Shown here piece after piece: positions 740 to 30,900 of a stretch of 64,000 nucleotides of DNA. Source of the DNA: a virus; IMG/VR virus record IMGVR_UViG_3300002063_000001, positions 1-64,000 of that record; one strand, given 5' to 3'. The notes under the pieces are model-generated. The model made no database searches and was not told the origin of the DNA. It worked only from the letters and a program-made list of their open reading frames with translations. Position 1 is the first letter of the stretch; every line of letters begins with the position of its first letter. A program made the position numbers and the translations under genes.

Positions 740-3664
740 ATGAATAAATTAAACACAAACCAGCAAATTGCTGTAGACAACATTGACGGACCCGTAATGG
801 TATTAGCTGGCCCAGGCACAGGTAAGACACAGGTGCTATCAGACCGTATCATTAAAATCATCGAAGAGACAGATACGAGCCCTTACAATATTCTATGCTT
901 AACATTCACGGATGCAGGTGTAGTAGCTATGAAGAAGAGATTACTAGAAAATCTCGGACCTATGGCTCATCATTTAAACATTTACACCTTCCACTCATTC
1001 TGCACAAGGGTTATCTATGAAAATCCTGACCTAATCGGGTTCAAAGATTTAGAGGCAGCGGACCAAATAGACATTACTCTAATAATCCGAGAGATTATAG
1101 ATAGCCTACCTAAAGGACACAACCTTAGAAGAGTCTCGGTAAACCCATACTTTGACGAAAAAGCTTTAGCTGACCTCTTCCAAACACTTAAGATGGAAGA
1201 TATGACTTCACTCAATGATCTGACTCAAAAGACTACTGAGTATATCAAAGACCTTCCAAACAAGCCAGAGTTTCAGTACAAGAGAAAATATAAAACCTTT
1301 AATGCTGGAGACCCCAAACCTGCTTTAATTAAGGATGAAACAGATAAGATGTTAAGGCTGCTAAGTGCTGCAGAGCTTTTGCCTAAGTATGACCAGATGC
1401 TCAGGCAAAAGAAACTTTACGATTTTGCAGATATGCTTATTTATGTATCTAAAGCATTCGATAGATACGAGTGGCTGCTCCGTAGATACCAAGAACAATT
1501 CCTTTATGTATTAGTGGATGAGTTCCAAGACACCAACGGTATGCAGTTCAAGCTAATCAACCAACTACTATCCTTTTGGGAAGAGCAAGCTAACATATTT
1601 ACAGTTGGGGATGATGACCAATGCTTGTACCAATTTCAAGGTGCGAGACTAGAAAATCTTGTGCAGTTTGAAAATCAGTATCCGGATATTGTAAAGGTGA
1701 ACCTAGATGTAAACTACAGGTCCAATCAGAATATAATCAATGCAGCTACGAATGTAATCTCTAACAATACCGAGAGACTTTCACAAGACAAGGAATTCAA
1801 AGCTCACAGTAAAGAAATCAAAAACGTAGAGTGCTTTCAGTACGAGTCATTAGAAGACGAATACACCGATGCTATCAGCTATGCTCAGCAGAGACTAGAC
1901 AAAGGAGACTCGGTTGCCATCATATACAGCAAACATAGACAAGTAGAGCCTATTGTAAACGCATTAGAGGCGATGGGAGCTCCATACACGACTAAGAAGC
2001 GTAAAGATGGCTTAAACGACCCTATAATTGATTGTGTAATAAGTTTGTTGATATACTTCAACGACCCTATCAGATATGATGCAGTGTTGTATGGGATATT
2101 AAACTATCCTTTTATGGACATCACACCATTTGAGGCAGCGGAACTTTTCCAAAGTAAAAGAGTTCATAATGCGATAGAGGGCAATGAACATAAGATATTA
2201 CTCCAGTTTATAGAGTCTTCTGAGGTTAGAATAAAAGAGTTTATAGAGTATGGCATCAACTACGCTCCTATATCCTCGCCCTTCACCTTCTATAAGTGGG
2301 TTGTTCATAATTCCGGGATGCTTCATTATTTCAAAGACCAAGACTATGCTCTATCTGTGCTAAAAACATTCGCAGATTTCATAGAAAATCAACAAAGCAA
2401 GAACCCGAGACTTACGATAAAGAAACTAATCAATATCATCATTGCTCTTCAAGAGAATAAGATAGCTATGCCTGTGCAAAGCATCGTTGCCAATGGTGGG
2501 ATAAATCTATTATCGGCACACGGATCTAAAGGATTAGAGTTCGATACAGTCATAATGATTGATTGCACCAAGACTTGGGAGCCAGGAAGAGGAGGGAGTA
2601 AGTTTAAGTTCCCCGACAATATTACACTATCGGGAGAAGAGGCTAGCTTAGAGTTTAGCCGTAGAGCTTTCTACGTAGCTATGACTAGAGCTAAGAGTAG
2701 GTTAAGAATGTCTTACTCGGCAAAACACGGAGATAAAGACAAGAATCCTTCTCAGTTTATATCCGAATCAGAAGTAGAAATAACTAAAGCAAGCACATCT
2801 TCAGATAAAATAAGAAACTTTGTTCAGAATAGCCTTCAAGGATTGTCTACTATAAATGCTGCAGACATTAACGACCAGTACATAGCAGAAAACCTAGAAG
2901 ACTTCACACTAAGCTTCTCGGCTATGTCTACTTACCAAAGGTGCCCTATCTCCTTCTACTATCAGTATGTGCTCAAAGTGCCTATTATAGAGAAGTCCCA
3001 CCTAGAGTTTGGTAATGCTGTGCACTCTGGCTTAGAAATGTTCTACCGAGATATGCTTCGTAATAAGAAGAAATTCGGCAGCAAGTTAGATGTAATAAAG
3101 TACTTTAAAGAGTATATGACATCCAATGAGTTTAAATTCTCGTCAGTAGACTACCCTAGATATGTAGACAGAGGAGAAGAAGCATTAAACTCTTACATAA
3201 AAGAAATAGAACTCTCTACAACCGTAAGAGTAGAGCAGCATATTTCTAATTGTGAGATAGAAGGAGTTCCTGTAAAGGGCATAATAGACCTTTTGTCTTT
3301 CACATCAGATATAGATGTAGACATTACCGACTACAAAACGGGCAAGTACAAGAAAGAAAACTATGCCGAAGGAGACTCTGAGAACATTGGAGGGAAGCAC
3401 TGGAGACAAGCTAATTTTTACTTCGCTCTTCTCTTTGCTCAGTCCAAAGAGAATTGGGTGCCAAAGTCGTGTACTTTCAGTTATGTAGAGCCTACAGATA
3501 AAGGGCATAAAAATGTCACTATAGAGAATGACAGCCAAGGTCTACACATCATACGTAATCAAATAAAACAAACATATAAATCAATTCAAAACCAAGAGTT
3601 CTCTACCGGATGCGGAGAAGAGAACTGTCAATGGTGCAACTTACAAAACATTAAAAATTTATAA
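740..3664 (+). CDS. UvrD/PcrA/RecB-type SF1 helicase fused to a C-terminal PD-(D/E)XK (Cas4/AddB-like) nuclease with a four-Cys cluster
   Basis: Helicase motifs: GPGTGKT (I), TFTDAG (Ia), YTFHSFC, VDEFQDTN (II), VGDDDQCLYQFQGAR (III), VNYRSN (IV), SAHGSKGLEFD (V), YVAMTRAK (VI). Nuclease region: YQRCP (Cys1), IDLL...DITDYKTGK (D..D/ExK), QANFY, and terminal CGEENCQWC (Cys2-4). Confidence 0.9.
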   Translation: MNKLNTNQQIAVDNIDGPVMVLAGPGTGKTQVLSDRIIKIIEETDTSPYNILCLTFTDAGVVAMKKRLLENLGPMAHHLNIYTFHSFCTRVIYENPDLIGFKDLEAADQIDITLIIREIIDSLPKGHNLRRVSVNPYFDEKALADLFQTLKMEDMTSLNDLTQKTTEYIKDLPNKPEFQYKRKYKTFNAGDPKPALIKDETDKMLRLLSAAELLPKYDQMLRQKKLYDFADMLIYVSKAFDRYEWLLRRYQEQFLYVLVDEFQDTNGMQFKLINQLLSFWEEQANIFTVGDDDQCLYQFQGARLENLVQFENQYPDIVKVNLDVNYRSNQNIINAATNVISNNTERLSQDKEFKAHSKEIKNVECFQYESLEDEYTDAISYAQQRLDKGDSVAIIYSKHRQVEPIVNALEAMGAPYTTKKRKDGLNDPIIDCVISLLIYFNDPIRYDAVLYGILNYPFMDITPFEAAELFQSKRVHNAIEGNEHKILLQFIESSEVRIKEFIEYGINYAPISSPFTFYKWVVHNSGMLHYFKDQDYALSVLKTFADFIENQQSKNPRLTIKKLINIIIALQENKIAMPVQSIVANGGINLLSAHGSKGLEFDTVIMIDCTKTWEPGRGGSKFKFPDNITLSGEEASLEFSRRAFYVAMTRAKSRLRMSYSAKHGDKDKNPSQFISESEVEITKASTSSDKIRNFVQNSLQGLSTINAADINDQYIAENLEDFTLSFSAMSTYQRCPISFYYQYVLKVPIIEKSHLEFGNAVHSGLEMFYRDMLRNKKKFGSKLDVIKYFKEYMTSNEFKFSSVDYPRYVDRGEEALNSYIKEIELSTTVRVEQHISNCEIEGVPVKGIIDLLSFTSDIDVDITDYKTGKYKKENYAEGDSENIGGKHWRQANFYFALLFAQSKENWVPKSCTFSYVEPTDKGHKNVTIENDSQGLHIIRNQIKQTYKSIQNQEFSTGCGEENCQWCNLQNIKNL

Positions 3665-3893: not shown

Positions 3894-3897
3894 AACA

Positions 3898-4617: not shown

Positions 4618-4636
4618 CATAAATTAATTTCAAATA

Positions 4637-4759
4637 ATGAACGGAAAAACAGCAAGAAAGCTTCGTAAAGAAGCTGAAGAAGAGACAGTGGGGTTAGACA
4701 AACAGACCACTCGAAAATTGTATAGGAAGAAGAAAAAAAACTATCGAACAAAAACCTAA
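4637..4759 (+). CDS. Possible 40-aa highly basic peptide (MNGKTARKLRKEAEEETVGLDKQTTRKLYRKKKKNYRTKT)
   Basis: ATG-to-TAA ORF filling an otherwise empty 190-bp gap. It is below the ORF-track length cutoff and has no other support. Confidence 0.25.
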   Translation: MNGKTARKLRKEAEEETVGLDKQTTRKLYRKKKKNYRTKT

Positions 4760-6473: not shown

Positions 6474-6475
6474 AT

Positions 6476-6880
6476 ATGAAAGGACCAAAATCAGACAAAG
6501 AAATAAAAGAATTGATCGCCGGGTTTGAATCGCCAATCAGGAAGGCTAAGAAAGTTATATCCTTTATGCGTGGAAAAATTACTAGGCTTAAGTTGTCGGG
6601 ATCAGCCAATCTTAAAGCAATGGAAAGAGTCGAGACACTTGAAGCTTTAGTTCACTACACATCTCATATAAAAGCAGAGATAAACGAGTCTAATGACAAC
6701 GTAGCCCGATGGTTTATGGCTTACGGTGAACTAAATAAGAAATATAAAAAAAAATGTGTCGAATTAAGCATCCTAGAAAAAATCAGTGAAATAGGTATGG
6801 ATGAAGTTAGAAAGGACTTGGACAATTACTGGGATGAAAAAGAGAAAAAGAGTCAAATTTTTAAAACAAACCAACAATGA
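6476..6880 (+). CDS. Hypothetical protein (coiled-coil-rich)
   Basis: 134-aa ORF whose end overlaps the next start. No recognisable motif. Confidence 0.5.
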   Translation: MKGPKSDKEIKELIAGFESPIRKAKKVISFMRGKITRLKLSGSANLKAMERVETLEALVHYTSHIKAEINESNDNVARWFMAYGELNKKYKKKCVELSILEKISEIGMDEVRKDLDNYWDEKEKKSQIFKTNQQ

Positions 6881-7155
6881 GTAAAGCACAACAACCAATA
6901 CAGAAAGAACTATTACTCTATCTCCTTTTAGCACAAGCAGAGGGGATAGCAGCCGAGATAGGAGTGGGTAATTCCTTAAAAAAATCTATTCGATCTATGA
7001 AAAGCTACGTAGAAAAAGAAGATGACAAGCTCAATCAAACAAAAGTAGGTGGAGTTATAAGCGAAGTAGCTAATTTTAACTTCACCAGAATAGTAGAAGG
7101 AATTACCAATGAAGTAATATTCACTGATAAAGGAGAAATAAAAATAGTCATCTAA
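6877..7155 (+). CDS. Hypothetical protein
   Basis: 92-aa ORF. Its stop codon overlaps the stop of the convergent gene 7152..9404. Confidence 0.45.
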   Translation: MSKAQQPIQKELLLYLLLAQAEGIAAEIGVGNSLKKSIRSMKSYVEKEDDKLNQTKVGGVISEVANFNFTRIVEGITNEVIFTDKGEIKIVI

Positions 7156-9404
7156 CCCACAGAAGACTCCTCAACCCTAGCATCAGCCATCTGGTCTATC
7201 ATCTTCTTACGTCTGTACTCTCTTACCTCTATATCAGAGAGTGCAGTTTGTTTCTTAATCTCCAAATCTACCTCTTGCTGCTTCATCTCTAGTAGCCTTT
7301 GATCTCGCTGCTGCTCTTTCACAGATTTCATCTCTTCTAGCTCCTTATTCTCTTTACCTTGTATCGCTATCATTCGCTCCTTCTGCTCATTCTCCATACG
7401 TAGCTTCTCAGCTTTTCTATGGTCCATCATCACTAGAGCTTCCTCTATACGGCCATCTTGAGCCAGTTCAGAGAGTAAATGATACTCTACCATATCTATA
7501 GCACCCGTTTCTACGGCTCTACCAGCACGTTCTTCAAACTTAGCTATCATTTCCTCAGTAGGCATCACTTTCACCGTCACACCTAGCTGCTTCAAGGTCA
7601 TATCCTTAGTAAGTTCCAGATACTCCATACCACTACCGTCTGCTATTGGATAATAAGCATCGTAGCTTTGCTGGCTACTAGTCACCGCAAGCTGCACTCG
7701 TAGAGCACAGTTCTCAGCAGTTTCCTTCTTCACCCACTTATAGGCATCATATATCTCATTCAGAGCATTGTTGCTACTTTGAGCAGCAAGACCAGCTTGA
7801 CGTGCAGTTACCTCTGGATTAGGACTACTACCATCTACTATCTCATTTAGTCCGGTAAGGTTTCTAATCGTATCTAACTCGCTAGATATTAGAGAAAGTA
7901 ATTCTTGCCCAAAAGAGCCGATACCACCTTGAAGTTCTTTTATAGGGATACCACTACCCCCGTATCGGTTATCCGAAAAGGCCCCAGAGTTATTATGAGT
8001 AGTAAATACTAAGTCCCCTGTAGATCGTTTAAGACGGAGCACTTCCAAAGGCTTAGCTTTACTTCCTGCAAGCTTCATTCCTTGCAGAGAGTTGTATTCT
8101 ATCGCTAGTCCAGGATCATCCGCATTTGCTACGAGGTTTTGCAACCTTAGCTGGTATAATCTTATGGAATCTATACTGCCCTTACACATCTCCACTAGAC
8201 TAGGCTTGTAGGATCTGTATACGTGAAAACTTGGTTTTATCTCACTTGCAGAAGGTCTAGGTATGTCGTACTGTTGTCCTGTGTCAAATATAGCATCCGA
8301 CCCGATCAACCATTTACCTCTGTATACATTTTTAAAAGTCTCTACCTCAGTCTTCCTCAGAGGGGTCTTACGCACTTTGCCGTAATCTTTACCCTTCTCA
8401 TTATATACTTTTTTCTTCCCCTCCTTAGACTTTATGGTGATGTAGTTCTTATCTACAGTCACTTGCTCAAAGTCCATTACATCTATAGTTACAGAGCCAT
8501 AATCATCCATCCAGTTCTGATCAAAACGATAATTATTATTAGACCCATCAAAAGTGCTGCCGTTGCTTTTTAATATCTTATCCCAATCCTCTCGCTTATA
8601 GTTCTTAAACTCATCCTCTTGCATAAGATCCGTTATACTATAAGGGACTATCTCAAAGAAATACTCACTACTATTTGAGCCTTTAGCTCTGTTATGACTA
8701 GAACAAAATTTAGCTATATTCACATAACGTATTTTTACTTTACCAGTAGACTTACAAGTGTAGTCCTTAGAGCACATTATGGCGTTCTCTACAAAATCTT
8801 GAATAAGCTTTCTCTTTGTTTCGTACCAATTGCTTTGATCAAATATGGCTTTATTCAGCTTCTTATGAACTATTTCCCCCTCTATCTTGAATCCCCCTAG
8901 TTTGTGAGCTATGCTTCGCTCTTGACTAGCAGAAGGTCTCAGTACAGGGATTTCTCCTTCTGGGTTTAGACTGAGACCTTCTCTTAGCCTCATCTCTACC
9001 TCCTTCTTTAGTCGGTAGTGAGCAGCATCTTTGTCTATCGCAGTTATATCTACCTTATGATTTATCTGAAGATATTTATTCACAGCGATAGCTACGAACT
9101 TAGGAAGAAATGACATTCTACCCCAATCCAAGTTCTCAAACATTTTAGCTTGAAGCTTTCTGTTTTCGACACCTTTATTATCCCCTTTTAAGAGAGGCTT
9201 AAATTTACTAGAGTCCTCCTTACCAGCCGCATACCTTCGGTTTTCATTAATCCTAGCCACGTCAGACAATCCATATAACGACTTGCCATCTTTATATTCT
9301 GAATACATCCACTTAGCCGAAGTAAGAAGCCAAGGTTTTTGTCTCTTTTTCTCTGGAGACACATTATGATCAGGCTCTTTAAGGCGAACTTTCGGTGTGT
9401 TCAT
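7152..9404 (-). CDS. Putative portal protein (P22-like size with a long C-terminal coiled coil)
   Basis: 750 aa. The last roughly 100 residues are a K/E/Q-rich helix (KAEKLRMENEQKERMIAIQGKENKELEEMKSVKEQQRDQRLLEMKQQEVDLEIKKQ). The call rests on size, architecture and being the only portal-sized candidate; no diagnostic motif was seen. Confidence 0.4.
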   Translation of the reverse strand: MNTPKVRLKEPDHNVSPEKKRQKPWLLTSAKWMYSEYKDGKSLYGLSDVARINENRRYAAGKEDSSKFKPLLKGDNKGVENRKLQAKMFENLDWGRMSFLPKFVAIAVNKYLQINHKVDITAIDKDAAHYRLKKEVEMRLREGLSLNPEGEIPVLRPSASQERSIAHKLGGFKIEGEIVHKKLNKAIFDQSNWYETKRKLIQDFVENAIMCSKDYTCKSTGKVKIRYVNIAKFCSSHNRAKGSNSSEYFFEIVPYSITDLMQEDEFKNYKREDWDKILKSNGSTFDGSNNNYRFDQNWMDDYGSVTIDVMDFEQVTVDKNYITIKSKEGKKKVYNEKGKDYGKVRKTPLRKTEVETFKNVYRGKWLIGSDAIFDTGQQYDIPRPSASEIKPSFHVYRSYKPSLVEMCKGSIDSIRLYQLRLQNLVANADDPGLAIEYNSLQGMKLAGSKAKPLEVLRLKRSTGDLVFTTHNNSGAFSDNRYGGSGIPIKELQGGIGSFGQELLSLISSELDTIRNLTGLNEIVDGSSPNPEVTARQAGLAAQSSNNALNEIYDAYKWVKKETAENCALRVQLAVTSSQQSYDAYYPIADGSGMEYLELTKDMTLKQLGVTVKVMPTEEMIAKFEERAGRAVETGAIDMVEYHLLSELAQDGRIEEALVMMDHRKAEKLRMENEQKERMIAIQGKENKELEEMKSVKEQQRDQRLLEMKQQEVDLEIKKQTALSDIEVREYRRKKMIDQMADARVEESSVG

Positions 9405-9463: not shown

Positions 9464-9766
9464 ATGGACGCTGACGTAATAATCAAAGAAGTTTACACTA
9501 AACCCGAATTTATTCAGAAAATAGCCCAATCTTTCTCCAATATGGATGAAAGAAAAGTCTCTGACATAATGAGATACAATGTGCTAACTGTCAGGCAAGT
9601 AACCTCTGTTACAGGGCTTTCTGTAAACGACATTTGGTGTTTAATCAGAAAAAAGAAACTAGTAAGGTGTGCCCCCTTCAGGAGTCATGACAGTAAGCCA
9701 GAGTCGGTATTTGTACTTAGAGACAAGACCCTAGAAGAATTTATTGAAGAAGAGCTGGACGCTTAA
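9464..9766 (+). CDS. HTH DNA-binding protein (excisionase/MerR-like HTH_17 type); candidate regulator
   Basis: LTVRQVTSVTGLSVNDIWCLIRKKKL fits the excisionase-family HTH pattern. It is the only + strand gene inside the 37-kb minus-strand late block. Confidence 0.55.
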   Translation: MDADVIIKEVYTKPEFIQKIAQSFSNMDERKVSDIMRYNVLTVRQVTSVTGLSVNDIWCLIRKKKLVRCAPFRSHDSKPESVFVLRDKTLEEFIEEELDA

Positions 9767-9785: not shown

Positions 9786-10349
9786 TTATCTTTGACTATA
9801 CTTTTTGTATGCCTTACGCATTTTAATATCGTAATTGTTTTTACGATACTCTGGACCATTGTACATGTAAGCAAACCTAGACCAATCTAACTCCTGCAAC
9901 TCGTCTTGCAGTCCTGCACTTATTATAAATCGAACAAACGCTTGCAACTGCCTCCCCTCGCTTATTGCCATATCATTCGCCATTTCTACAGCCGAGGCAT
10001 ATCCACACTTAGCGTGATTAAAGCCCATTATCTGGAACATACCCCAACTTGCAGACTTAGCAGCCGCCTCTTGGTCTAAGAAACTAGCCTCTACAAGTCT
10101 TTCGTATTGGTTCATACCATAATATTTACGAGTCCATCTATAATGGCTCAGGTGCGGGTATTTTTTAGCATACTTCCCTTTAGTGAGCTTATGGAACCAA
10201 TGCCCCTCAAACAATATTTTCGGGCGACCTAATTTATCAAAACCTCCTCCACGACTTTCTACCTCAGCAACAGCTCTTATTACCGCCACATCAACTTGCA
10301 GTAGATTAGCGGCCAGTGTAAAGTCTCTCGAGGTTAGCCCCTTACTCAT
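9786..10349 (-). CDS. Endolysin, N-acetylmuramidase family (PF11860/DUF3380-like)
   Basis: Family hallmarks: AVIRAVAEVESRGGGFDKLGRPKILFEGHWFHKLT and WGMFQIMGFNH. Its start overlaps the holin gene end. Confidence 0.85.
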   Translation of the reverse strand: MSKGLTSRDFTLAANLLQVDVAVIRAVAEVESRGGGFDKLGRPKILFEGHWFHKLTKGKYAKKYPHLSHYRWTRKYYGMNQYERLVEASFLDQEAAAKSASWGMFQIMGFNHAKCGYASAVEMANDMAISEGRQLQAFVRFIISAGLQDELQELDWSRFAYMYNGPEYRKNNYDIKMRKAYKKYSQR

Positions 10350-10833
10350 CTTCTTTGCTATCTATAGATTCTAACTTAAACTTACCTATTTGGATAGTCA
10401 GGATCTTATGCAGTGGTTTAAATACCATTTTACTCAATGTTGAAGTGCTGTCAATTTCGTTCAAGTTCTCCAAAACACTAACCACTTCAACATATATCAA
10501 AAGTATAATTATAGCCGAGCTTAGGAAATCCACAATAGGGACCAGATTAGAATAAGGTGACTTACCAACCACATTCATCATTATAAAAACAATAATTATA
10601 GCTCCGAAATATTGAATAAACTTCAACACAGTCTTACGCAAAGCACCGCTAGTTCTAGCTTTCCTCAAGACTACAGCCTTGGTAAATCCAAAGATGAAAT
10701 CCAAAAGCATAGATAACCCAAGCCATATTAATAAGTGAAGGTCAGGCACAGAGTCCGGGCTTATCAGGTTTCCAAGAGACAGTCCTACTGTCCCTGTTAT
10801 CGACATAAATATTGCCGTAGAGGTTATTTTCAT
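10342..10833 (-). CDS. Holin (phage_holin_4_1-like, four TM segments)
   Basis: Four hydrophobic helices are visible. The family-like blocks are LLDFIFGFTKAVVLRKARTSGALRKT and YVEVVSVLENLNEI. It sits directly upstream of the muramidase. Confidence 0.8.
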   Translation of the reverse strand: MKITSTAIFMSITGTVGLSLGNLISPDSVPDLHLLIWLGLSMLLDFIFGFTKAVVLRKARTSGALRKTVLKFIQYFGAIIIVFIMMNVVGKSPYSNLVPIVDFLSSAIIILLIYVEVVSVLENLNEIDSTSTLSKMVFKPLHKILTIQIGKFKLESIDSKEDE

Positions 10834-11276
10834 TTTAAGTTAAATTTATAATTACAGTGTATTAGATCCCAAGGGACATAGCTGTCCTCTGGCATTATGC
10901 ATTCTTTTTTCATCTGGTAAAGTGTAGTGGTATCACTACTAAGTAAGACCACCTGTAAGTGTTTTACACTATCCACATACCACTCCTTTACATCTTGTAT
11001 AAAATATTCAGCTCGGTGATCAGTGTTGTCTACCACCCAGATAGGGTAGCTAAAAAACTTGTTCTCATCATTATGGAACTTAGTCGTCTCTTTGTGTTTC
11101 ATAAAACTACTCAAAGGGTAATAGTGGTCATTTATATCCTCTACTGATTCTACAGGTGATTCCGAAGCGTACTGAGGCTTCTGAACACAACTTACTGCTA
11201 AAATACCTATGGAAGTCAAAACTAAAAGCAATACTATTAGCGTATTGATGGGATTTTTATTGATTGATATATTCAT
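10830..11276 (-). CDS. Putative lipoprotein in the lysis cassette
   Basis: The N-terminus NTLIVLLLVLTSIGILAVSC is a hydrophobic helix plus a lipobox-like AVSC. The gene overlaps the holin start. There is no C-terminal TM, so it is not a unimolecular spanin. Confidence 0.5.
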   Translation of the reverse strand: MNISINKNPINTLIVLLLVLTSIGILAVSCVQKPQYASESPVESVEDINDHYYPLSSFMKHKETTKFHNDENKFFSYPIWVVDNTDHRAEYFIQDVKEWYVDSVKHLQVVLLSSDTTTLYQMKKECIMPEDSYVPWDLIHCNYKFNLK

Positions 11277-11277
11277 A

Positions 11278-12252
11278 TTATGATATTAATTCTTGGTTAA
11301 TTTCTTTGCCTCGCTCTACTCCTAGGTAAAACATCTTACTCATCGCTTCTTTGCTGAAATCTAGTAGACTACCAGTGATATTAGGTGGTAGGTAAAAAAT
11401 GTCTGAGGATAATGGCAACTTATCCAAATCGCCTTTCTTAGCCTGTGTGCTGATAGTGAAAAATTGATTTAAAAGTCGCTTTATGTCCTGGTCTTCTCGG
11501 ATATACTCTACCCTCTTATCTTTATGCTCGTGCAAGTACACATCTATAGGGTATGCACTCATTTCGGCTATTTTTCCTGTGGGGGTACTCTCACCTGCTC
11601 CACCGTCTGAGTGACGTATTATACCGTAGTCTATCTTATCGTTAGTATACTGAGGTATGTGTACAGGTTTAGCAAACTGTGGTATCGCACAACTGCCTAC
11701 TACGGCTAGTGTGAAATTCTCATAATCATAATCATCGCTACAGTGGTACACTATACCTATGTTGGTATGACTATCTATACTAGTAGTGACGTAGCACCTA
11801 CGGCCACTTGCTTGCAGTGCTAGGTGATCTGCTTTTGTATAGTATTTTCTAAGTGTTTTTAGTAGCGGTTTGCTTATATCTGTCAAGTAAGATTTGCCCG
11901 TTATCTTATTGTATATAGACGCTACCTTAAAACGAAAGTTAAGCTCACCTTTTCTGTTGAATGGATTATAACCATACATCAGTGAGTTAGACATGTTTAA
12001 AATGGCATCGTCCATCACATCCCATAACTGAGCTGCACATAGTACCGCTTCTATGCTCCCAGTACTCGTACCTGCGGTTATTATATAGTTTGGCCTAGTC
12101 ACATATAGTTGACCTCCGTAGTATCCTATTCTGTTTGCTCCGCCACCAAAAAATCCGCTTCTGTATGGTTTGTCAGAATTGTCTATAGGCGTAAAACTTA
12201 GATCGGGATGATTGCCCGGTACGCTTTTATGTATGGAGTAGGTGGTTTTCAT
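11278..12252 (-). CDS. Patatin-like phospholipase (PNPLA family)
   Basis: All four patatin blocks are present in order: FFGGGANRIG (oxyanion Gly-rich), AGTSTGS (GxSxG nucleophile), GSCAIPQFAKPV (ASxxxP block) and HSDGGAGE (catalytic Asp-Gly-Gly). Confidence 0.75.
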   Translation of the reverse strand: MKTTYSIHKSVPGNHPDLSFTPIDNSDKPYRSGFFGGGANRIGYYGGQLYVTRPNYIITAGTSTGSIEAVLCAAQLWDVMDDAILNMSNSLMYGYNPFNRKGELNFRFKVASIYNKITGKSYLTDISKPLLKTLRKYYTKADHLALQASGRRCYVTTSIDSHTNIGIVYHCSDDYDYENFTLAVVGSCAIPQFAKPVHIPQYTNDKIDYGIIRHSDGGAGESTPTGKIAEMSAYPIDVYLHEHKDKRVEYIREDQDIKRLLNQFFTISTQAKKGDLDKLPLSSDIFYLPPNITGSLLDFSKEAMSKMFYLGVERGKEINQELIS

Positions 12253-12256
12253 ATTA

Positions 12257-13873
12257 CTATTCTTGTATCACATTTCCGCTAAAGTCTTTTATCTCTCCTA
12301 TAGTAGAGCCATTCACTTGGCCGAGCCAATTTTTTATGTATAAGCTCCCTCCTGTAGTATTGCTAAATATGAGCGTAGTAGGGTCGCCATCATCATAAGC
12401 GGAGCACCCCCATAGCCACATACCGTCATTAGCTCCTGTGGCTAAAGCACCATCATTCCAAAAGCAAGCTCTTGGGCTTGCTGTGCCTGTAGGATTACCT
12501 GCGGTCACATTCAGATTAACAGATACACTACCTAGTACATCTGCTACTACCGCCCCATTGCAGTCACTCATTATAGAATTAGTACGTAGTATGTGAATAT
12601 TATCGTGGCAGCTGCTCGCATTTTCTGATGTGCCTAGTGCGGGCTGATTGTCAAAAGGAACTACACCGAAGAAGTGACCAGTACAGTCATTTTCATATAC
12701 AGTCATATACTCGCCCTTAGTTCCTGTGGTTATGAAGCTATGATAATTGAACCCATCACTCGCACAGTACTTGCTATGACAGTTATCAAATACGCTAATC
12801 TCCGCATCATAGATTTGAAAACCATTTGAATTGCCACCAAAGGCGGTGCAATTTCTTAATCCCAATCGTACATTATTTACTGCTATAGTCTGAGGTCTAT
12901 ATCTGAATACGGCTTTTTTAGCAGTTCCAAGATTAGAAGTGAATCCAATATTTTCTAGCAGTATAGTAGCATCCGACACGCTACTCTGTATCTCAAAGTC
13001 GTACGGACTTCTATTGCTTATCCATCCATCGTAAGGGTCTGGAATACGTCCATCTATCATGTGTACGGTAAGCGTGTTACCTGTGGCCCAATGAAAAGTA
13101 CCTGGAGTGCTTATGCATTCCGCCTGAGTAGCCACATACTTGATAGGCATAGGTATACCTTTATCGTCTACATAGTTGCCATCAAACTGTGATCTGAGCT
13201 GTATAGCGTTTCCATTGGTAGATACATAAGCCCCACCGTTTGCGGTCCAAGCAAAATTGGCTGCACTTAGGTTTTCATTCATCCCAGAGAATAATGTTCT
13301 ACCAGTGTTAGCATAAGCACCTTCACCTATTAGCTTTACAGAACCATCAAATATTTTGTCTATAAAGTTGCTCCCATTTATTCCGTAAAAATCATCCTCT
13401 AAATGAACCACCGCTGGGTAGGTAATATTGGCCACCATAAAATCAAATGTCTTATAAGCTGCTGCACTGGATAGACCAGTATTGGCGTTGTTTCCTGTGG
13501 TAAAATTTACATAGTAATGGGTAGCATCTTGCCAAGCAGTATCTAACCTGTCATAAGGATTAGTCTTAAACTGTATTTTGCTACCATCTGAAAATGGCTC
13601 TACATTGGCAAGGTTATTAAACTCTGTAGGTAGCTCTACGTTGCCTACTGGCAGTCTATTTACACTTACTCGATTGAGTGGTGTAGTGTCCGCTAGTGCT
13701 ACATCTATGATACCTGTCTCAGCATCATAGAAGAATAACGTATCATTTCTTACGAAGTGGTAATCACGCTCTACATTGGCTGCACCATTGCGAGCAGTTT
13801 TACTTTCTATGCTTGGAGTTTGGCTGCAAGCAAATAGGCTTGCAAATAGTATAAGTATGGTAAATTTTCTCAT
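12257..13873 (-). CDS. Right-handed beta-helix (pectate-lyase-fold) protein with a lipoprotein signal; candidate polysaccharide depolymerase/tailspike
   Basis: The N-terminus is MRKFTILILFASLFAC|SQ (lipobox LFAC). PbH1-like repeats are visible: NCTAFGGNSNGFQIYDAEISVFDNCHSKYCASDGFNYHS, NDCTGHFFG and SSCHDNIHILRTNS. Confidence 0.5.
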   Translation of the reverse strand: MRKFTILILFASLFACSQTPSIESKTARNGAANVERDYHFVRNDTLFFYDAETGIIDVALADTTPLNRVSVNRLPVGNVELPTEFNNLANVEPFSDGSKIQFKTNPYDRLDTAWQDATHYYVNFTTGNNANTGLSSAAAYKTFDFMVANITYPAVVHLEDDFYGINGSNFIDKIFDGSVKLIGEGAYANTGRTLFSGMNENLSAANFAWTANGGAYVSTNGNAIQLRSQFDGNYVDDKGIPMPIKYVATQAECISTPGTFHWATGNTLTVHMIDGRIPDPYDGWISNRSPYDFEIQSSVSDATILLENIGFTSNLGTAKKAVFRYRPQTIAVNNVRLGLRNCTAFGGNSNGFQIYDAEISVFDNCHSKYCASDGFNYHSFITTGTKGEYMTVYENDCTGHFFGVVPFDNQPALGTSENASSCHDNIHILRTNSIMSDCNGAVVADVLGSVSVNLNVTAGNPTGTASPRACFWNDGALATGANDGMWLWGCSAYDDGDPTTLIFSNTTGGSLYIKNWLGQVNGSTIGEIKDFSGNVIQE

Positions 13874-15864
13874 TATCTTCTGATGTATAAAGTCGGGTCT
13901 CCTATGATGTAATACTTCACTCTACTAAAAAGTGCGTGTGCAGCATTAGCGGCTGCGTGTGTGGCATACTCTGGTATGGCTCTAGTCTCTTGCTCGTATA
14001 TTTCAGAAACAGTTTTGCCGTGGTTTGTCAATATAGTCTGTAGGTCTATTCCCTCACAGTACTGCTCATACATCTCATATCCTTTTTGGTGTATAACATC
14101 CACTATCTCTAGGCTTAGTACAAACTGTAGTGCATTGTTAGATGTTTCTAATACCTCCACATCAAAATAGTATCTACCGCTATCTGCATCATAAGATATA
14201 GGAGTAACATTAAGATAACCTTGTCTAAAATCGTCTGACTCATCAACACTTGTGCCTATGTCAGAGTATACTTTGTAATATTCTCTATCGGCAGATGCGT
14301 AGGTTGTATTATTAAGACTCCTGCCTTCATTGGTTCCAAGTTTCACAACTATCTCAGCATCTTTGTCGAATATGCCAGACCTGTTATAGACATTGAATGT
14401 AGCTTTTACATGAAAATCGGATATAATACCCAAATAAGACTCCGAGCCCAAGTATATGCGTATTGCATCAAAATCGGGGTCTGTAGAAAGCCTAGCATTA
14501 TTATACCACAAATTCGTAGTTACAGTGCTACCTTGTAGTATAGGAGTAGACTTGGCTACCTTCCCTTCAAAATCTGTGTCTCTCCATATCCCTGCACCAT
14601 TCACATAATTGAACGGTAATGTAAGTCCACCATCGTCAAACTGGTACAATCTCAAAAATCCGTCACTTGTTAGGTCCATCAAATCGTACCTTCCGTGGTC
14701 AGTTGTGAGACTATCAATATGTTCGTTATCTACATCTATAGCCTTAGTGTCGCTGCTATCTCCTTCTGCTAGTATGTATAAGCCTCCATTGTCTGACGGC
14801 ATATTTGCCCAGTCGTAATCACCAGCCAGTATACTTACATTTTGTCCTGTAGCTATACCTTCAGGGAGTGTCACTTCATTGGTTTTTAGCAAGTACTCCT
14901 GAGTTCTCCACGGACTCCACTCGCTTATACTGTAGCTGTCTAGCTGACAGTTGGCATCTATAAATCTTATCTTGTAGCCGACAGTGTCACTAGCTGCCTG
15001 ACTCGTATTAGCAAATCTGAAAGTAATAGGAGTAACATCTTGTATTCCCTGGAATGGGCAAGTACTAGCATCACCGCTTTTGAAAGGGATTCTATCTACT
15101 CCTCCTGCTCCATTGGTATAGATTAGTGTATCGCCATTAGCTGAGGTATCTAAGCTGCCCAGTTCATTAGTAACGTCTGTATCAAGGTCATTGATGATAT
15201 GATTGGTAATAAAATCTCTCAATACACTCGCAGAGTCTGATATGGTCTGTGTGTTTAAATTTATACGATTACTAAGGCTCGTAGTATCTACTTGACTTGT
15301 GATATAACTAGCCAACATAGCTGCCGTATCACTTATACTTAGCTTGCTGTTTATACGATTACTTAGACTCGCGGTATCTATGGTACTGGTATCGTACGCT
15401 ACCGCATATCTGCTACCTGCATCTGTTATCACTAGGCTATCACCTGTGGCATTTAGCACAAATCCCATGTTGTATTCATTAGTAGGGTCTGTATCTAAAT
15501 CTGAGTCTATATGCGACTTAGTATATGCTCTTAGTGTGGCTGCTGTATCTATAATGGACTGCAGATTACGATTGATACGATTACTCAGACTAGTGGTATC
15601 TATGGCAGTGCCGCATGCATTATCTATGTACTCGGTATGTATGAGCATATTTGTGGCTACGTCAAAGTACTCCAACACCACGCTATCATTCTCACATCTA
15701 TTTTCTAGTCGTGTGTAGTGCTGCCTGCCATTAGGTCCTGTGACTACATAAGCTCCTTGCACTCTAGCTCCTGTAGCATCTCTAGCAGGAAATATCTGTT
15801 TTATTTTCTGGGCAAAACCCTGATAAGCTAGTAGTACTAATAGTATGGATAATATTCTTTTCAT
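13873..15864 (-). CDS. Fiber-like protein with an N-terminal signal peptide and three internal DT(T/A)SLSNRIN repeats
   Basis: The N-terminus is MKRILSILLVLLAYQGFAQ|K. Repeats lie at about aa 88-128, 162-190 and 192-235 (DNA about 15160-15603). The composition is Thr/Ser/Asp-rich. Confidence 0.5.
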   Translation of the reverse strand: MKRILSILLVLLAYQGFAQKIKQIFPARDATGARVQGAYVVTGPNGRQHYTRLENRCENDSVVLEYFDVATNMLIHTEYIDNACGTAIDTTSLSNRINRNLQSIIDTAATLRAYTKSHIDSDLDTDPTNEYNMGFVLNATGDSLVITDAGSRYAVAYDTSTIDTASLSNRINSKLSISDTAAMLASYITSQVDTTSLSNRINLNTQTISDSASVLRDFITNHIINDLDTDVTNELGSLDTSANGDTLIYTNGAGGVDRIPFKSGDASTCPFQGIQDVTPITFRFANTSQAASDTVGYKIRFIDANCQLDSYSISEWSPWRTQEYLLKTNEVTLPEGIATGQNVSILAGDYDWANMPSDNGGLYILAEGDSSDTKAIDVDNEHIDSLTTDHGRYDLMDLTSDGFLRLYQFDDGGLTLPFNYVNGAGIWRDTDFEGKVAKSTPILQGSTVTTNLWYNNARLSTDPDFDAIRIYLGSESYLGIISDFHVKATFNVYNRSGIFDKDAEIVVKLGTNEGRSLNNTTYASADREYYKVYSDIGTSVDESDDFRQGYLNVTPISYDADSGRYYFDVEVLETSNNALQFVLSLEIVDVIHQKGYEMYEQYCEGIDLQTILTNHGKTVSEIYEQETRAIPEYATHAAANAAHALFSRVKYYIIGDPTLYIRR

Positions 15865-24958: not shown

Positions 24959-27900
24959 CTAATCGTCTTCCTTAGCCCCCCCCCCCAGGTGATTGTAGTT
25001 AACCTCCATTTCTTCTGCGACATCTAACCTTAACCTCTTCGCCTCTCTTTTCATACTTCGCAATGCTCGACCTTTCTCAGTTTCACTCAGATACCCATTC
25101 TCCTGAAACTCTGTCCAATAAGATTGATTCTCTAGCCACTCCCCATATTTTATCTGAAACTGGGACTCAAAAACTCCTTTGAGATACTTGTTATTTTTAA
25201 GCCACTTAGGAATACTACTTGTCACCCCTTTTGGACTGTATTTTACCTCTGAATAATATTTTTTACCTTCTACACTTCTTTTAGGGCTGTCGTATGTAGA
25301 TGTACCCATGCCTAGAATAGTCGCAACAGAATTTACCGTAGCTTGACCAACACTAGGATGTTTTAGCTCACCATCAAATGCCATCTTATATTCTCCGTAA
25401 ATTTCCTCAATAACTATAGGTATAGCTACCGCCGTAAACGCCTCCCCTGCGTTTAATATGCTCCCATACGTGTCTATGCCAATGTCGGTTTTGTACTTTT
25501 CAGAAAAATCATACGCCATAAACGGCTTTCCTATAGCATCTTTTTTTTGTGCAAACATCAAACCTGCACTTATGCTTGGATGAAGTTTATACTGAATGAA
25601 TTTTCCCCAAAGAGCAGGCAAGCTTGATTGGTTATACCCGTAAAAGTTAGGGTCATTTGTTTTATCCACTACTTCATAAGATTCTAACACCTTAAAAACT
25701 GTTTGAGATAATATCCTCAACACCTGTGCCTCCCCTGCTAAAACATCATACCTAGTATTGTTAATGACATTTTTCATAAAATCACTATCCCTAGGATCTT
25801 CCTCTTCGTCACCGCCTAACAAATAGCTCATTGCGGCCTTTATTACGGCGTATGTGCCCGCTAGCCTAATCCACTGCTTCATTATTTCCTTGTCCGCCTT
25901 GCTAGATTTACCTGTAACCAATCTTCGACCTGCTCTTAATGGAGCATTTAATGCTTGGAATCTGCTCACTGTGTACTTAGGAGCAAATAATATTTCGCTA
26001 GAATTATTTATTAAATGACCAAACTTAGAATCCGCATCTACTTTATTTTGGCCTCTACCAGTAGCTATATTCACCCATCTAGCAAATTCTGTTAGGTCTT
26101 TAATGTCTACATCTCCCGTTTTGTAATGTTTAGTCAAATAAGTGTCAAACATTTCTACTCTAAGCAGGTTAAGCACTGTACTCATGTGATTTTCAGAACC
26201 CTTAACCACAAGTCTTAATCCAGGGATTTTTTTTGCCCAATCACTTTGGAAAAACTCCTCAGATTGGGATGTTCCTGGGTGGGTCAGCTCTAATCCAGCC
26301 ATTTCTCGATAAGTATGATTAGTCTCGTTAATCATACCTTGATATATAGCCTCTGTTTTTTCTGAATTAACATTAACCAATGCCTTTACAAAAAAATCAA
26401 ATCTCCCGGTTAGTAGCATTGCAAATGCTCCTTGCCTTAATGTCCCAGATAAATCGGCTGTAGCTTTCATTGTCCTAGTCACATTCCATATATCCGAAGC
26501 TATTTGAGTAGACGTTTTCTTATGCTTATGTTTTACGTAATCGAGTGCATTTTGTTGTAGTTTCGCTTTCTTAGCTCTCGCTTTATTGAGCCTATCGTTA
26601 AACTCTGTGGTTTGTTTTACTTTTACCTCTGACCTTTTTAATATGTTATCTGTCGCTTCTTTTTTTACATCTGGGTCTTTTGATTTTAGCCCTTCTATAT
26701 CTGACTCTATGTCTTCTATTGTTTTCTCAACTTCTACTAGAGCTAACAAGTCTCGTATTTTTTCTTTTGTTAGCTCTATGTCGGTTGCAGGGTCGTACAA
26801 TTCTTTATCAATGTCTGACAATATATTTAAAGCTTCGTCTAACTTCTTTTTATTATTTATTGATAAGGTAAGTTTTTTTAATGCTTCGTTTAACGCTTTG
26901 ACCTCTTTACTTGGATTGTTCTTAGGCGTCTTAGGTTTTCTTATCCCTTTTGCTATATCTTCAATTTTACGCTTAATTTTAGCTTGTTTCTTGAGCTCGT
27001 TAAGTCTTTTTTTAGAGTCGCTAACGGCGGACCTTTGGTTTTCTTGAGTGTTTGTTGTTAAAGCTACAATAACATCCCTTTCTGTAAGATCTGGGACATC
27101 TTCCTTCATCTTAGTATACAAGTCTGCGAGATTGTCTACACCATCCTCTATATTAACCTTAGCCAACTCGTATAGAGGAGCTATTGTCTCAACTACTGAT
27201 GTAACATCGTTTAGTCGAGACATTATATCTTTAATAGAATCTACTGCTTTCTTTTTCCTTTGTTGCCTATCCTTTTTATCAAATCCTTTTTTAGCCACCC
27301 TCTTAATGGATTTTATTTCTTCTTGGATTTGTTTTTCAGCACTATTCTTCAGCCTTTGTGCCTCAAGTTCTTCGGCTTGTTTTTCTAAGGATTCAATTCG
27401 TTTCTGTTGCTCTTTTATTTTTTTAGCCATATCAGCCACTTTAGCCTTTTCAGCATCCGTGAGCGGTTGGTCTGCCTTAGCTTTTTCAACCATCTTAGTG
27501 AGCTTAGCTATTGAGAAATTGTTTTTAGAAATAGCAAGTCTTCTAATATTTAGCCTTCGAGCAGCCTCTGTGCCAGCTTGCTGAGCAGCTTTAGTAATAA
27601 TTGAGATCTCATCAATTAAATTTGAGATTCGATCATTGACCTCCGATAAAGTCTCCAAATTATTTGTTTTCTCAAGAACATCCTGTTCTGCTTCAATCTG
27701 ATTTTCAAGCTCTGTTTCTCTAACAACCAGGCCAATATGCTCTTCTTCTGTGATGGATTCCCCAGATAAAGCCTTAACTACCGTTTGATTTACAACTTCT
27801 TTTTTATGAGCCCCATTTTTTATAGCATTGTCATACGATTTTTGCCAAGCTTTCCTTAATGGAGGAGGGAGTCTATCTAAATTATACCTTTCTCTGGTAT

Positions 27901-30900
27901 CTTCTATGGAAGATTTTTTTAGAGAGATAGCATCATTAGTCTCTTTAGTATTTCCCGACTTCTTATCAGAAGGACTTACCGGTTCTTTTGCAGAGTTTTT
28001 GTTGGCAGCATTGAACGCTTCTTCTATGTATGGTATAATAGCTTCCCCAGCATCTTCTATAAGTTTAGCCGACACATCCGCTAATTTTCTAGTACCAGCC
28101 TCTATGTGGAATGCAGCCATAGTAGTAGCTGCTTTAAGTAAATCTGCATCTAACCCTGAGTTGAGGTTATTAGTTCCTTTTTTGAAGGCTTCTTTCGCTG
28201 ATTCAAATTTATCTACCGTTACTCCTTTGTTGGAACTCCCGTATTTGGGTTTTGATTTTTTAGGCTCTGGCTTTGACTCGGGCTTAACATTGTCATCACT
28301 CTTCTTCGGCTCATTAACCGTCTCCGCTTTAACTTCTCTAATCTCCCTTGCTGGTCTGGACTTAATTGTTTCTTCATATACTCTTTCAAAATTACGGTTT
28401 GTAGGTGTTAATCCTGTGACTTCTCTAAATCTTTCTTTTAATAATCCTATTATCTCATCATCCCTATTAAGAGTAGCCTCGTAATCTTTTGAGGACTCAA
28501 AAGATGTCATAAACTCTATTACATTATCAGCAGATATAGCACTGTCTGTATAATAAGATTCGATTTCACTATCTGAGGAAGCTGCCTCAGCAAACGCCTC
28601 TATACTTACTCCTTTATTCTGTAGATTAAATGCCTTCCTCATTTTAGGAGTTATGTCAGACTTCTTATAACCAGTATGCTTCATAAAGCTATCTATTGAT
28701 ATAGCTTTAGACCCCAATGATTTAGAGATAGACCCGAAAATATCTGTAGACATCTCTTGAAGCATTTGCTCGTCTGTAGAATCCGATAATACAGAATCTA
28801 TTGCAGTAATTATCTCTATTGGGTTTTTGCTACTAGAAGCTACTCTTTCATTATATTCTGCAACCGAACCAGAGCCGTCATTGAGATCAGACGTGCCTAT
28901 CATTTTAGATCTCGACTGAGCCACAGCTCTCTCTGTCAATACTTTGACTTTCGTTGCATTTGATACAGGTTTTCTCTTCTTATTTAGAACATCTATATTC
29001 CCATCCTTAATGCTGGCACTGTACCCATTTGACCCCTCAAAAGTGTTCTCTGTATAATCCTTGGACAACGGATTGAAGAACACGTTCTTATCCTTTTCTT
29101 TAACATAGCGACTACCCATCTCATCCTCAGCTTGCTGAGATAGAAAGTCGTCCCAATCTACATCTTCCCCAACAATTAGGGGGGTATCTTTCCTTGTTTC
29201 TAATTCTTCCGAAGATAATTCTTTAACATCAACCTTCTCTACTTCTGCAGGAGTGCTCTCAGTTTTAAGTTCACCTGGTCCATCTTCATTTGAAGTTTCT
29301 CCTTCTCCTGCATCAACATTTGTATCTCCAACTTCTTCTGATTTAGTTTCTCCTTCTCCATTTTCTGTAACTTCTGTGCTTAATTCTACAGTGTCCCCGG
29401 CTTTTAAAGTCTCACTCTCTTCTGATTTAGCTTCTTGATTGGGGTTTGATTCTATGGCTTCTGCTGCTGAGGATATATCCTCACTTACCTCCTTAGATAT
29501 TGCTTCAAATTCTTTTTGAACCTCTGGAGATTGATTTTTTAACCAACTTTGATGCTCAGCCATAAACTTTTTACCTGCATTAGTCGCAGAGCCCATCGCT
29601 GCCCCCATAAAAAATGTCATGAGACCAAACTTTATATTCCCCTCAGCAGTTCCAAACCTATCCTGGTGTAGTTCTATGAATTTCTCCATATCGCTACCAC
29701 TATCTTTAAGAATAGATGCTATCTCATTACCGTACTCCTCTGCTACTTCACCTAATCCTAAGCCAGATTTAGCAAAAAGCTTACCCATTAGTTTATCCCC
29801 AGTAGCAGCATTAGAGCCAAACATCTTAGTCATAGAGCTCTGATAAAACTTCTTCCCAGCCAATGACGTACCCACTCCTTTAGCCCCACTAGCAAAAACA
29901 CTACCTAATGCTCCAGAAAGAAACGTGGCTTCATCTTGCAGTGTCTCTGAATTCCCTAGTAATCCAGCAGCCTCGTATTGAAGTCCACTTTCCGCAGCTC
30001 CATATAGAAGCTTTGTGCTTCTATTTATGTTCTTGGCCGTATTTATGTATTTACCTACCTTAGTAGCTCGCACAAGCCCACCAGCTCCTTTTACAATAGC
30101 ACCTCCACCCATAAAATATGGCATAAGACCCACCGTAGTACCTACCGTATAACTTACCTCTTCTCCTAAAGACATATCATAGGATGCCTCCATTGCTTTA
30201 GAAAAATCCTCGTCTACACCATCTGACACATCTGCCATTTCAAATGACTCGTATAGTGTAGATGCCTGCTTTTGTTCAGTAGGATACTGAGTGTCACCAA
30301 GTACAACATTAGACACTCCTTTACCAAACTGACTTAGCCAATTATCTTCTGAAAGCTGTTTTTTGTTAAGTAACATAACCGGAGCTAATTCTTTAAGCTC
30401 CAAGTTCCTGTTTTGCATGTCTTGCCACACCTCAGCCTCCCCACTCAAATATCCATATACTGGTAGATTAGCTCTAATTATAGAGAAGTTATCCATTTTG
30501 GACTCCATATCTTCAAGCTGCTCAACTCTACTGTGATAATAGTTCTCTAGTTTTTCTAATCGAGTATCACCTGGCATACGTTTAACCTCTTCCTTTTCAG
30601 AATAGGTTTTAGCCACCTCCATAGGATTCACTACGGGCTTAATACTTGCTAGAAGTTTTTGTACATCCTCAGCTATCTGAGTAGCCTCTGAATCGCTGGC
30701 ATCTACTAGTTCAGATTTTAATGACTTTATTTGATCATTTACTTTTTGAACAGCATCTAACCTTCTTTCTGCTATTTGTTTTGTAAGGGTTTTCTCTTTG
30801 GATGTGTATATATCAAACTCTGGACCTTCCGTATATTTACCCAGTTGTTTTTGAACAAACTCGAGTTCACTTGCTAGAGAGTAGTCCTCTTGCATGTCTT

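Follow-up and report, generated by a model that had tools for sequence, protein, structure and literature searches.

The window analysed here, i.e., the whole stretch of 64,000 nucleotides (nt) that makes up positions 1 to 64,000 of the virus record IMGVR_UViG_3300002063_000001, encodes on its minus strand (11278..12252) a short patatin-like protein of 324 amino acids (aa), and we lean towards the view that this predicted enzyme has a lipolytic role linked to lysis of the host cell. A narrower proposal, which we put forward tentatively, is that the protein would act as an outer-membrane disruptor replacing spanins. The preliminary description of this DNA had called it a candidate lipid-targeting lysis factor of that kind; the patatin fold and dyad, the packing of the gene in a lysis cassette, the lack of a detected spanin in the window and the recurrence of the linkage in other phages all agree with it, while the outer-membrane target and the replacement of spanins are what we infer. 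The broadest and slightly more doubtful extension would be that short patatins without a signal peptide (“lipolysins”) make up a fourth class of lysis proteins in phages, widespread but so far unrecognised, which breaches the outer membrane in phages of Bacteroidota, crAss-like phages included, after the holin and endolysin have acted.

Patatin fold, motifs and family

We regard the predicted patatin identity of the 324-aa open reading frame (ORF) as secure and far beyond chance. Residues 35-225 match the Pfam family Patatin (PF01734) with E=1.1e-7 and 32.7 bits, against a gathering score of 27.7, and the match spans profile positions 3-187 of 191. The four patatin motifs are present in order and where the preliminary description had put them, namely GGGANRIG (36-43), GTSTG (61-65), SCAIPQFAKPV (187-197) and SDGG (215-218). 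Its reading of these as the four patatin blocks holds for three of them: GTSTG is the G-x-S-x-G nucleophile elbow of block II, GSCAIP (186-191) is the counterpart of A-S-x-x-x-P in block III, and SDGG supplies the D-G-[GA] of block IV, with Ser63 of the elbow and Asp216 of SDGG as the predicted catalytic dyad. In block I the Gly run is kept, but the Arg is displaced by one residue in comparison with the canonical G-G-x-[RK]-G; the family consensus at this place, taken from an alignment of 40 sequences, is SGGGSxGA, with no conserved basic residue.

The AlphaFold2 (AF2) model, built with the family alignment as input, reached a predicted local distance difference test score (pLDDT) of 86.5 and a predicted template-modelling score (pTM) of 0.87. 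When it was compared with the PDB by Foldseek, all 26 matches at E<=1e-3 were patatin or cPLA2-fold enzymes, led by CapV (8zr9, E=1.9e-10) and CapE (9iom, E=4.2e-10), and followed by PlpD and potato patatin (Pat17). The template-modelling scores of these leaders lie at about 0.55-0.7 (about 0.58 for CapV and CapE) and their identity to the window patatin at 13-16%; a profile search of PDB sequences agrees on the patatin kinship. The Pfam search and structure prediction that had been proposed as checks on the patatin assignment thus both came out in its favour. The predicted viral structures that match are nearly all giant-virus patatins, with the addition of one protein of an uncultured Caudovirales phage, and the window patatin does not appear close to any characterised patatin enzyme. 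No signal peptide was seen in its N-terminal hydropathy; the N-terminal extension of about 30 aa is non-hydrophobic, is modelled with low AF2 confidence and is missing from most relatives.

Close homologues are scarce. Among 5.8 billion proteins, a word-indexed search recovered the window patatin alone, and the protein had no PHROG match, no tblastn match in 50,697 GenBank phage records and no relative in an IMG/VR scan made with its sequence. The exhaustive phmmer search of 1.84 billion cluster representatives gave 135 non-self relatives at E<=1e-3 (best E=1e-24, about 30% identity), with a median family length of 296 aa and with most representatives aligned over nearly their full length. Among 136 representatives, the window protein included, Ser63 is present in all 136 and Asp216 in all 133 that align there, while Ser187 is kept in 132/136 and Pro191 in 112/136; G47, S63, D216 and G218 are invariant in the 40-sequence alignment, and the motifs are intact in 15/15 phage copies compared. 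The window protein is apparently an active patatin-fold enzyme under selection for catalysis. In most representatives the glycine-rich block begins within 20 residues of the N-terminus, so that a signal peptide has no space ahead of the catalytic core.

Tblastn of the window patatin and two further family members against GenBank phages found only two uncultured huge-phage records, both weak, and no cultured phage carrying a member. The top matches of the family profile are chromosomal patatins of Flavobacteriaceae (Polaribacter, Tenacibaculum, Lutibacter; E about 1e-84), which are probably the cellular source of the phage genes; in Polaribacter sp. Hel1_33_78 the gene has housekeeping genes around it and is not part of a prophage. 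The nearest members to the window patatin are phage-borne. Judged from these searches, the short patatins are a diverse family that had not been described in phages before and occurs mainly in those of the Bacteroidota type. A separate subfamily of 251-aa patatins with 1-3 predicted transmembrane (TM) segments adjoins ORFs of 1,100-2,100 aa in IMG/VR loci L075, L098, L074, L152, L163, L165 and similar; these loci appear to come from eukaryotic giant viruses or phycodnaviruses and to have no relation to the phage family.

Lysis cassette and search for spanins

To judge from gene order and spacing, the patatin gene is packed transcriptionally and translationally with a holin-endolysin cassette. 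Directly downstream of it lie the lipoprotein, holin and muramidase genes named in the preliminary description, supported here by a lipobox, PF05105 and PF11860, respectively (Table 1). There is a 4-nt gap before the patatin gene and a 1-nt gap after it, followed by overlaps of 4 nt and 8 nt; the spacing of 1-4 nt claimed earlier therefore fits the first three junctions and falls short of the last overlap. Likewise, the holin assignment stands, and of the four TM segments ascribed to it three are clear in the hydropathy scan and a fourth is possible. In the same kind of scan the PF11860 muramidase has no signal, signal-anchor-release or TM segment, and it should therefore depend on the holin; since the patatin, too, has no signal peptide, holin-dependent release of both would fit. 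Together the patatin and lysis genes close a long minus-strand late operon, which extends from about 44.5 kb to 9.8 kb. Promoter- and terminator-like sites inside the cassette were no commoner than in shuffled sequences, as judged by a sigma-70 scan whose model is ill-suited to Bacteroidota.

The 148-aa lipobox protein encoded between the patatin and the holin is an ORFan: it matched nothing in Pfam, PHROG, PADLOC or NCBIfam and found only itself among 5.8 billion proteins. Its single-sequence AF2 model is uninformative (pLDDT 46) and consists mainly of strands, with no coiled coil. The protein may be an envelope-side partner of the patatin, i.e., its anchor, activator or inhibitor.

Spanins and TM segments were called by simple hydropathy and lipobox rules and not by dedicated predictors. 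A six-frame lipobox scan of window ORFs of up to 260 aa found only the 148-aa ORF, with neither a partner ORF nor an embedded one. The TM scan of 75 non-overlapping window ORFs gave no type-II coiled-coil candidate near the cassette, where the 148-aa gene was again the sole N-terminal-TM candidate. Although this protein has a lipobox (Cys30), it lacks a C-terminal hydrophobic or TM segment, and therefore it is not a unimolecular spanin of the T1 gp11 type; as its model, poor as it is, shows mainly strands and not a coiled coil, it is not a typical i-spanin either. A two-component system, that is, a type-II N-terminal-TM coiled-coil protein with an adjacent or embedded small lipoprotein, was not found in the window, in line with the earlier statement that it holds no i-spanin/o-spanin pair and no unimolecular spanin.

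Genomic contexts in other phages

Further loci, numbered with an L, were collected by exact-protein look-ups and by a degenerate-motif IMG/VR scan (a DNA pattern for GTSTG[AS]LIA) followed by hmmsearch; a second IMG/VR pattern, YVDGG.x[DE]xxP, recovered mostly other patatin subfamilies, and only L146 and L151 from it were useful. The lineages were thus sampled opportunistically and not systematically. Between lineages the patatins share 17-38% identity, and their neighbours are mutually unrelated and have no phmmer similarity to the holin, lipoprotein or upstream proteins of the window, except for the L182 muramidase and one repeat region.

In about 7-8 of the roughly 11 informative lineages the patatin lies no more than a few genes away from a holin or endolysin (Table 1), and the partner peptidoglycan hydrolases belong to four families (PF11860, Peptidase_M15_3, GH108 and CHAP). 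If a random gene has a chance of about 11% of lying within four genes of an endolysin, at least five such cases in nine should arise by chance about once in a thousand times, which is to be taken as a rough guide only. Recurrence of the linkage across unrelated phages lends a lysis role far more credibility than a position beside lysis genes in a single genome could.

The muramidases of the window and L182 are 77% identical, but their patatins are only 28% identical and their holins unrelated; either the modules of the cassette would have been shuffled or the patatin would be evolving much faster. SNase-family nucleases lie directly beside the patatin in two unrelated loci, L026 and L146, and the extra hydrolases in these loci suggest that lysis cassettes are enriched in additional hydrolases. 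The TIR_2 protein of L010 matches PADLOC models of TIR-type defence, Thoeris ThsB among them, and its pairing with the patatin may be conflict-related. The L021 capsid shares 51% identity with the capsid of a Leeuwenhoekiella phage.

Table 1. Positions of the window features and gene orders around family patatins in other loci
Locus	Feature or gene order	Position	Strand	Length	Basis or remark
Window	Patatin-like acyl hydrolase/phospholipase, predicted	11278..12252	(-)	324 aa, ~37 kDa	Pfam, motifs, AF2, Foldseek
Window	Predicted lipoprotein, or possibly type-II membrane anchor	10830..11276	(-)	148 aa	Hydrophobic aa 13-31 ending in lipobox LAVSC (Cys30)
Window	Holin, Phage_holin_4_1	10342..10833	(-)	163 aa	PF05105 E=8.8e-10; phrog_199 holin; NCBIfam holin_1 weak
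Window	Endolysin, N-acetylmuramidase PF11860	9786..10349	(-)	187 aa	Pfam E=4.6e-61; phrog_1224 and phrog_2860 endolysin
Window	Upstream neighbour	12257..13873	(-)	538 aa	Lipobox LFAC (Cys16); matches PHROG “hydrolase” and “tail fiber” families
Window	Upstream neighbour	13873..15864	(-)	663 aa	Signal-peptide-like N-terminus (..GFA/QK); three internal repeats DTxSLSNRIN
Window	Convergent ORF	9464..9766	(+)	100 aa	HTH_17 weak, E=0.005, below cut-off
Window	Portal	7152..9404	(-)		
Window	Large terminase	58461..61961	(-)	1166 aa	
Window	Virion-module ORF	24959..31456	(-)	2165 aa	aa 697-1175 match DarB-like antirestriction PHROG
Window	UvrD-helicase/PD-(D/E)XK fusion	740..3664			
Window	Order: patatin, lipoprotein, Phage_holin_4_1, PF11860 muramidase				
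L182	Secreted protein, patatin, 2-TM protein, 1-TM protein, PF11860 muramidase	Patatin 6001-6816; muramidase 7366-7932			
L005-7	Patatin, 134-aa protein, Phage_holin_4_1				
L020/22/41/47	Tape measure, tail protein, secreted protein, patatin, 81-aa TM protein, Peptidase_M15_3				
L052	Patatin, then directly Peptidase_M15_3				
L043	Patatin, 70-aa TM protein, 144-aa protein without family				L052/L043 group
L021	Two small TM proteins, patatin, Peptidase_M15_3				4-nt overlaps
L146	Alpha/beta hydrolase, GH108 lysozyme, two small ORFs, 2-TM protein, patatin, SNase	Hydrolase 3772-4710; SNase 6990-7487			SNase with signal/lipobox-like N-terminus
L178	Patatin, CHAP-like protein with hydrophobic N-terminus, N-terminal-TM coiled-coil protein, C-terminal-TM protein				crAss-like
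L183, L014, L030, L009, L010	Small TM proteins adjoin the patatin				Ambiguous; no wall hydrolase identified in stretch examined; L183 is a second crAss-like phage
L002-4	RadC, patatin, two proteins without assigned function, head protease				Not lysis-linked
L026	Patatin, SNase	SNase 2199-2540			Not lysis-linked
L010	Patatin at tail-module end, then TIR_2 protein	TIR_2 7960-8841		TIR_2 293 aa	Not lysis-linked; TIR_2 E=1.6e-26

Upstream neighbours, phage genome and host

The large proteins encoded upstream of the patatin, in the position of tail fibres, carry N-termini of an exported type, i.e., a lipobox in the 538-aa protein and a signal-like sequence in the 663-aa protein, and it is uncertain whether the former belongs to the lysis unit. 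Similar N-termini occur upstream of the patatin in three other loci (L010:2235-5365, L020:9305-9970 and L182:4895-5989). Export signals are odd for virion proteins that are assembled in the cytoplasm, and these genes may form a block of exported, envelope-acting proteins ahead of the lysis genes. The 663-aa protein shares its repeat region with the signal-bearing protein upstream of the L182 patatin (36% identity over 74 aa). On the other side of the cassette, a lone plus-strand ORF of 100 aa lies convergently between the minus-strand muramidase and portal genes.

The window is part of a 72.7-kb metagenomic contig, scaffold_98 of ENA ERZ23497281, and the large terminase, the portal and the virion proteins mark it as a phage genome. 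Megablast found no nucleotide match of the window among GenBank phages. All 85 GenBank phages with a related portal infect Flavobacteriia (Cellulophaga, Maribacter, Flavobacterium), with about 22-26% identity among the matches listed, and several of them have genomes of about 72 kb; since every portal relative is a phage of one of these three genera, the host is most likely a Gram-negative member of Flavobacteriia. The genome looks like that of a virulent podophage of the Flavobacteriia type, and no integrase was found among the families matched by window ORFs in general family scans. The regions inspected of Leeuwenhoekiella phage Arctus_1, Cellulophaga phi38:1 and Maribacter Panino contain no patatin annotation.

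The Pfam scan covered 47 window proteins, the three largest ORFs being left out of it, and matched 11 families; neither among these families nor among the separately scanned neighbours was there a CD-NTase (cGAS/DncV-like nucleotidyltransferase), cyclase or SMODS family. Matches included ArdA antirestriction protein, the DnaA C-terminal helix-turn-helix domain, DUF1064, a YunG-like protein and an N6/N4 methylase, and the window further encodes a UvrD-helicase/PD-(D/E)XK fusion. In the large terminase ORF the terminase-family matches start only at about aa 325-357, and the N-terminal ~320 aa have no such match. The 2165-aa ORF of the virion module, in which a part matches a DarB-like antirestriction PHROG, may be an ejected anti-defence protein.

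Proposed role and rival explanations

In the course of events which we infer as regards lipid substrate, compartment, timing and the substitution for spanins, an enzyme of the phospholipase A kind would be made in the cytoplasm late in infection as a product of the lysis operon. Permeabilisation of the inner membrane by the holin would let this ~37-kDa enzyme reach the periplasm along with the signal-less muramidase, and there it would hydrolyse glycerophospholipids of the inner leaflet of the outer membrane, as well as of the exposed inner membrane, with lysophospholipids and free fatty acids as the products. Such detergent-like products may destabilise the last barrier, and lysis would be completed or sped up where no spanin is encoded.

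Several points weigh against this proposal. Morons and toxins released at lysis, too, typically have their genes next to lysis genes, and the linkage does not appear to be universal, as phages of the L002 type (between RadC and the head protease) and L010 (beside the TIR protein) carry the patatin elsewhere. The oxyanion-hole block, block I, seems non-canonical. The lack of spanins was read from rule-based scans of the window, and the window does not include about 8.7 kb of the 72.7-kb contig; moreover, the small proteins with an N-terminal or C-terminal TM segment in the homologous cassettes of L178, L183 and L182 might be spanin-like or holin-like, and the patatin therefore need not replace spanins. 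A cytoplasmic lipase already reaches the inner leaflet of the inner membrane; the data therefore do not call for holin-dependent control of compartment, and some other control of activity would be needed. By analogy with CapV, a patatin without a signal peptide could just as well act on the inner membrane from the cytoplasmic side.

Degradation of the inner membrane from within would thus be the closest rival explanation to consider: the patatin would attack the cytoplasmic face late in infection in the manner of CapV and CapE, and would serve as an auxiliary or back-up to the holin, or as a timing or commitment device, and not act on the outer membrane. CapV and CapE are indeed the best structural matches and the window protein has no signal peptide; in L014, L030 and L183 small TM proteins accompany the patatin and no peptidoglycan hydrolase was identified in the stretch examined, and phage WO is proposed to lyse by a patatin and a holin-like protein with no endolysin. 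It nevertheless seems unlikely to us, as an unregulated cytoplasmic lipase would be prematurely toxic and no activator or cyclase was among the 11 Pfam families of the 47 window proteins, while the PADLOC phospholipase-effector models miss the window protein at E<=0.01 and the family is 40-70 aa shorter than CapV. We consider it improbable that the enzyme would serve only for dispersal after lysis, clearing membrane debris and vesicles so that progeny are not trapped on receptor-bearing fragments, with no part in the rupture itself. The SNases beside the patatin in L026 and L146 (the latter signal/lipobox-like), the alpha/beta hydrolase beside GH108 in L146 and the lipobox- or signal-like proteins immediately upstream of the window patatin would suit such a clearing function, but debris clearing by itself needs no tight holin-endolysin placement of the sort seen in L021 and L020.

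To no greater degree do we expect the gene to be a moron or conflict gene at a lysis-cassette hot spot, be it a toxin set free at lysis against grazers or competitors or an effector or counter-effector in conflicts of the phage with its host or with other phages, for instance with a superinfection-exclusion, abortive-infection-like or anti-CBASS function (CBASS, cyclic oligonucleotide-based antiphage signalling system). Prophage patatin-like phospholipases have been catalogued as morons in Burkholderia prophages (PMC2920897), a TIR_2 protein follows the patatin in L010, the L002 patatin lies outside any lysis cassette, and family homologues weakly match PADLOC phospholipase-effector models (E 1e-7 to 3e-12). 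Against this, the linkage recurs with four endolysin families, with the patatin inserted between holin and endolysin genes by 4-nt overlaps; the invariant dyad does not fit a decoy or sponge, no cyclase or sensor partner appeared in the window scan, and the phage looks virulent with no integrase family matched. The preliminary description had itself named a decoy or counter-measure to host patatin effectors such as CapV of CBASS as a lesser alternative, and it is unlikely here as well, given the invariant dyad and the lack of a CD-NTase or cyclase in the 47 window proteins scanned; a catalytically dead decoy or sponge is ruled out by the invariant Ser and Asp. A virion-borne entry lipase, encoded at the distal end of the tail-fibre module and opening the outer membrane at infection, is in our view very improbable. 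The patatin does directly follow tail-fibre-like or large tail genes in the window and in L010, L014, L020, L043, L151 and L182; however, the lysis cassette follows the tail module in most phages, so this position does not discriminate, and the family consists of compact single-domain enzymes with no PHROG structural match and no virion-docking domain.

A lysis-linked lipolytic enzyme would matter since the breach of the outer membrane by spanin-less phages is an open question, for which, to our knowledge, the disruptin of phiKT is the sole alternative to spanins shown experimentally. The lysis of Bacteroidota phages is nearly uncharacterised, including that of the abundant marine Flavobacteriia phages and of gut crAss-like phages, and the latter, as far as we know, are mostly without recognisable spanins. 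A family found in lysis cassettes with interchangeable endolysins is a concrete candidate for enzymatic disruption of the outer membrane, or of membranes in general, and digestion of membrane lipids may be an unrecognised step in the release of these phages. If true, the LysB principle would extend from mycobacteria to Gram-negative hosts, the patatin hypothesis for phage WO would gain an experimental footing, and a new class of enzymes would be at hand for use in engineered lysis or to make Gram-negative bacteria sensitive to endolysins.

Comparison with known systems

A patatin as a phage lysis enzyme is not wholly new, since the proposal for phage WO came first; beyond it, we found no account in literature of a patatin in a phage lysis cassette or of a phospholipase as an alternative to spanins. 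The lytic cassette proposed for phage WO is patatin-based and consists of a patatin-like phospholipase A2, a holin-like protein as well as an ankyrin protein, so that in both cases a phage patatin lies beside a holin-like membrane protein and the tail module (PMC9203015). For phage WO, however, the proposal is that the patatin takes the place of the endolysin, its host having no detectable peptidoglycan, whereas the window patatin coexists with a holin and a muramidase, and its cassette has no ankyrin protein. Tblastn of three members against GenBank phage records, which may or may not include those of phage WO, gave no WO match, and the family would be distinct from it in sequence.

Next to the WO proposal, the nearest precedent is LysB of mycobacteriophages, the established lipid-ester hydrolase of a lysis cassette, which cuts the mycolyl-arabinogalactan link of the mycomembrane after the endolysin has acted. 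The window patatin would be its functional analogue only, i.e., a lipid-cleaving enzyme in a lysis cassette acting on an outer lipid barrier, as LysB, with its Ser-Asp-His triad, belongs to the cutinase-like alpha/beta hydrolases, while the window protein has a patatin fold with a Ser-Asp dyad and would face a Bacteroidota envelope.

With CapV and CapE, which are cytoplasmic patatins that kill by degrading bacterial membranes, the window protein shares the patatin core and the lack of a signal peptide. It differs from them by its low identity, the shorter length of its family and the failure of the PADLOC effector models to find it, and its gene is phage-encoded and lysis-linked and does not lie in a defence operon, with no CD-NTase or cyclase partner found in the scan. 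The chromosomal patatins of Flavobacteriaceae (306-322 aa) have the same single-domain architecture, but they are only 22-26% identical to the window protein and lie in housekeeping neighbourhoods.

The release lipoproteins of colicins and other bacteriocins activate OmpLA (PldA), which leads to lysophospholipids, a leaky envelope and quasi-lysis. The small lipobox protein directly beside the phospholipase gene of the window resembles this arrangement by analogy only, as the lipase in colicin release is a beta-barrel enzyme of the host and neither a holin nor an endolysin takes part.

In the end, approximately 15% of phages of Gram-negative hosts have no spanins and use other outer-membrane disruptors, such as the disruptin gp28 of phiKT (bioRxiv 10.1101/515445). 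The window patatin is a candidate for the same last step, in which the outer membrane is disrupted; unlike spanins of the two-component Rz/Rz1 or unimolecular gp11 type, which fuse membranes, and disruptin, which is a cationic peptide, it would take an enzymatic, lipolytic route.

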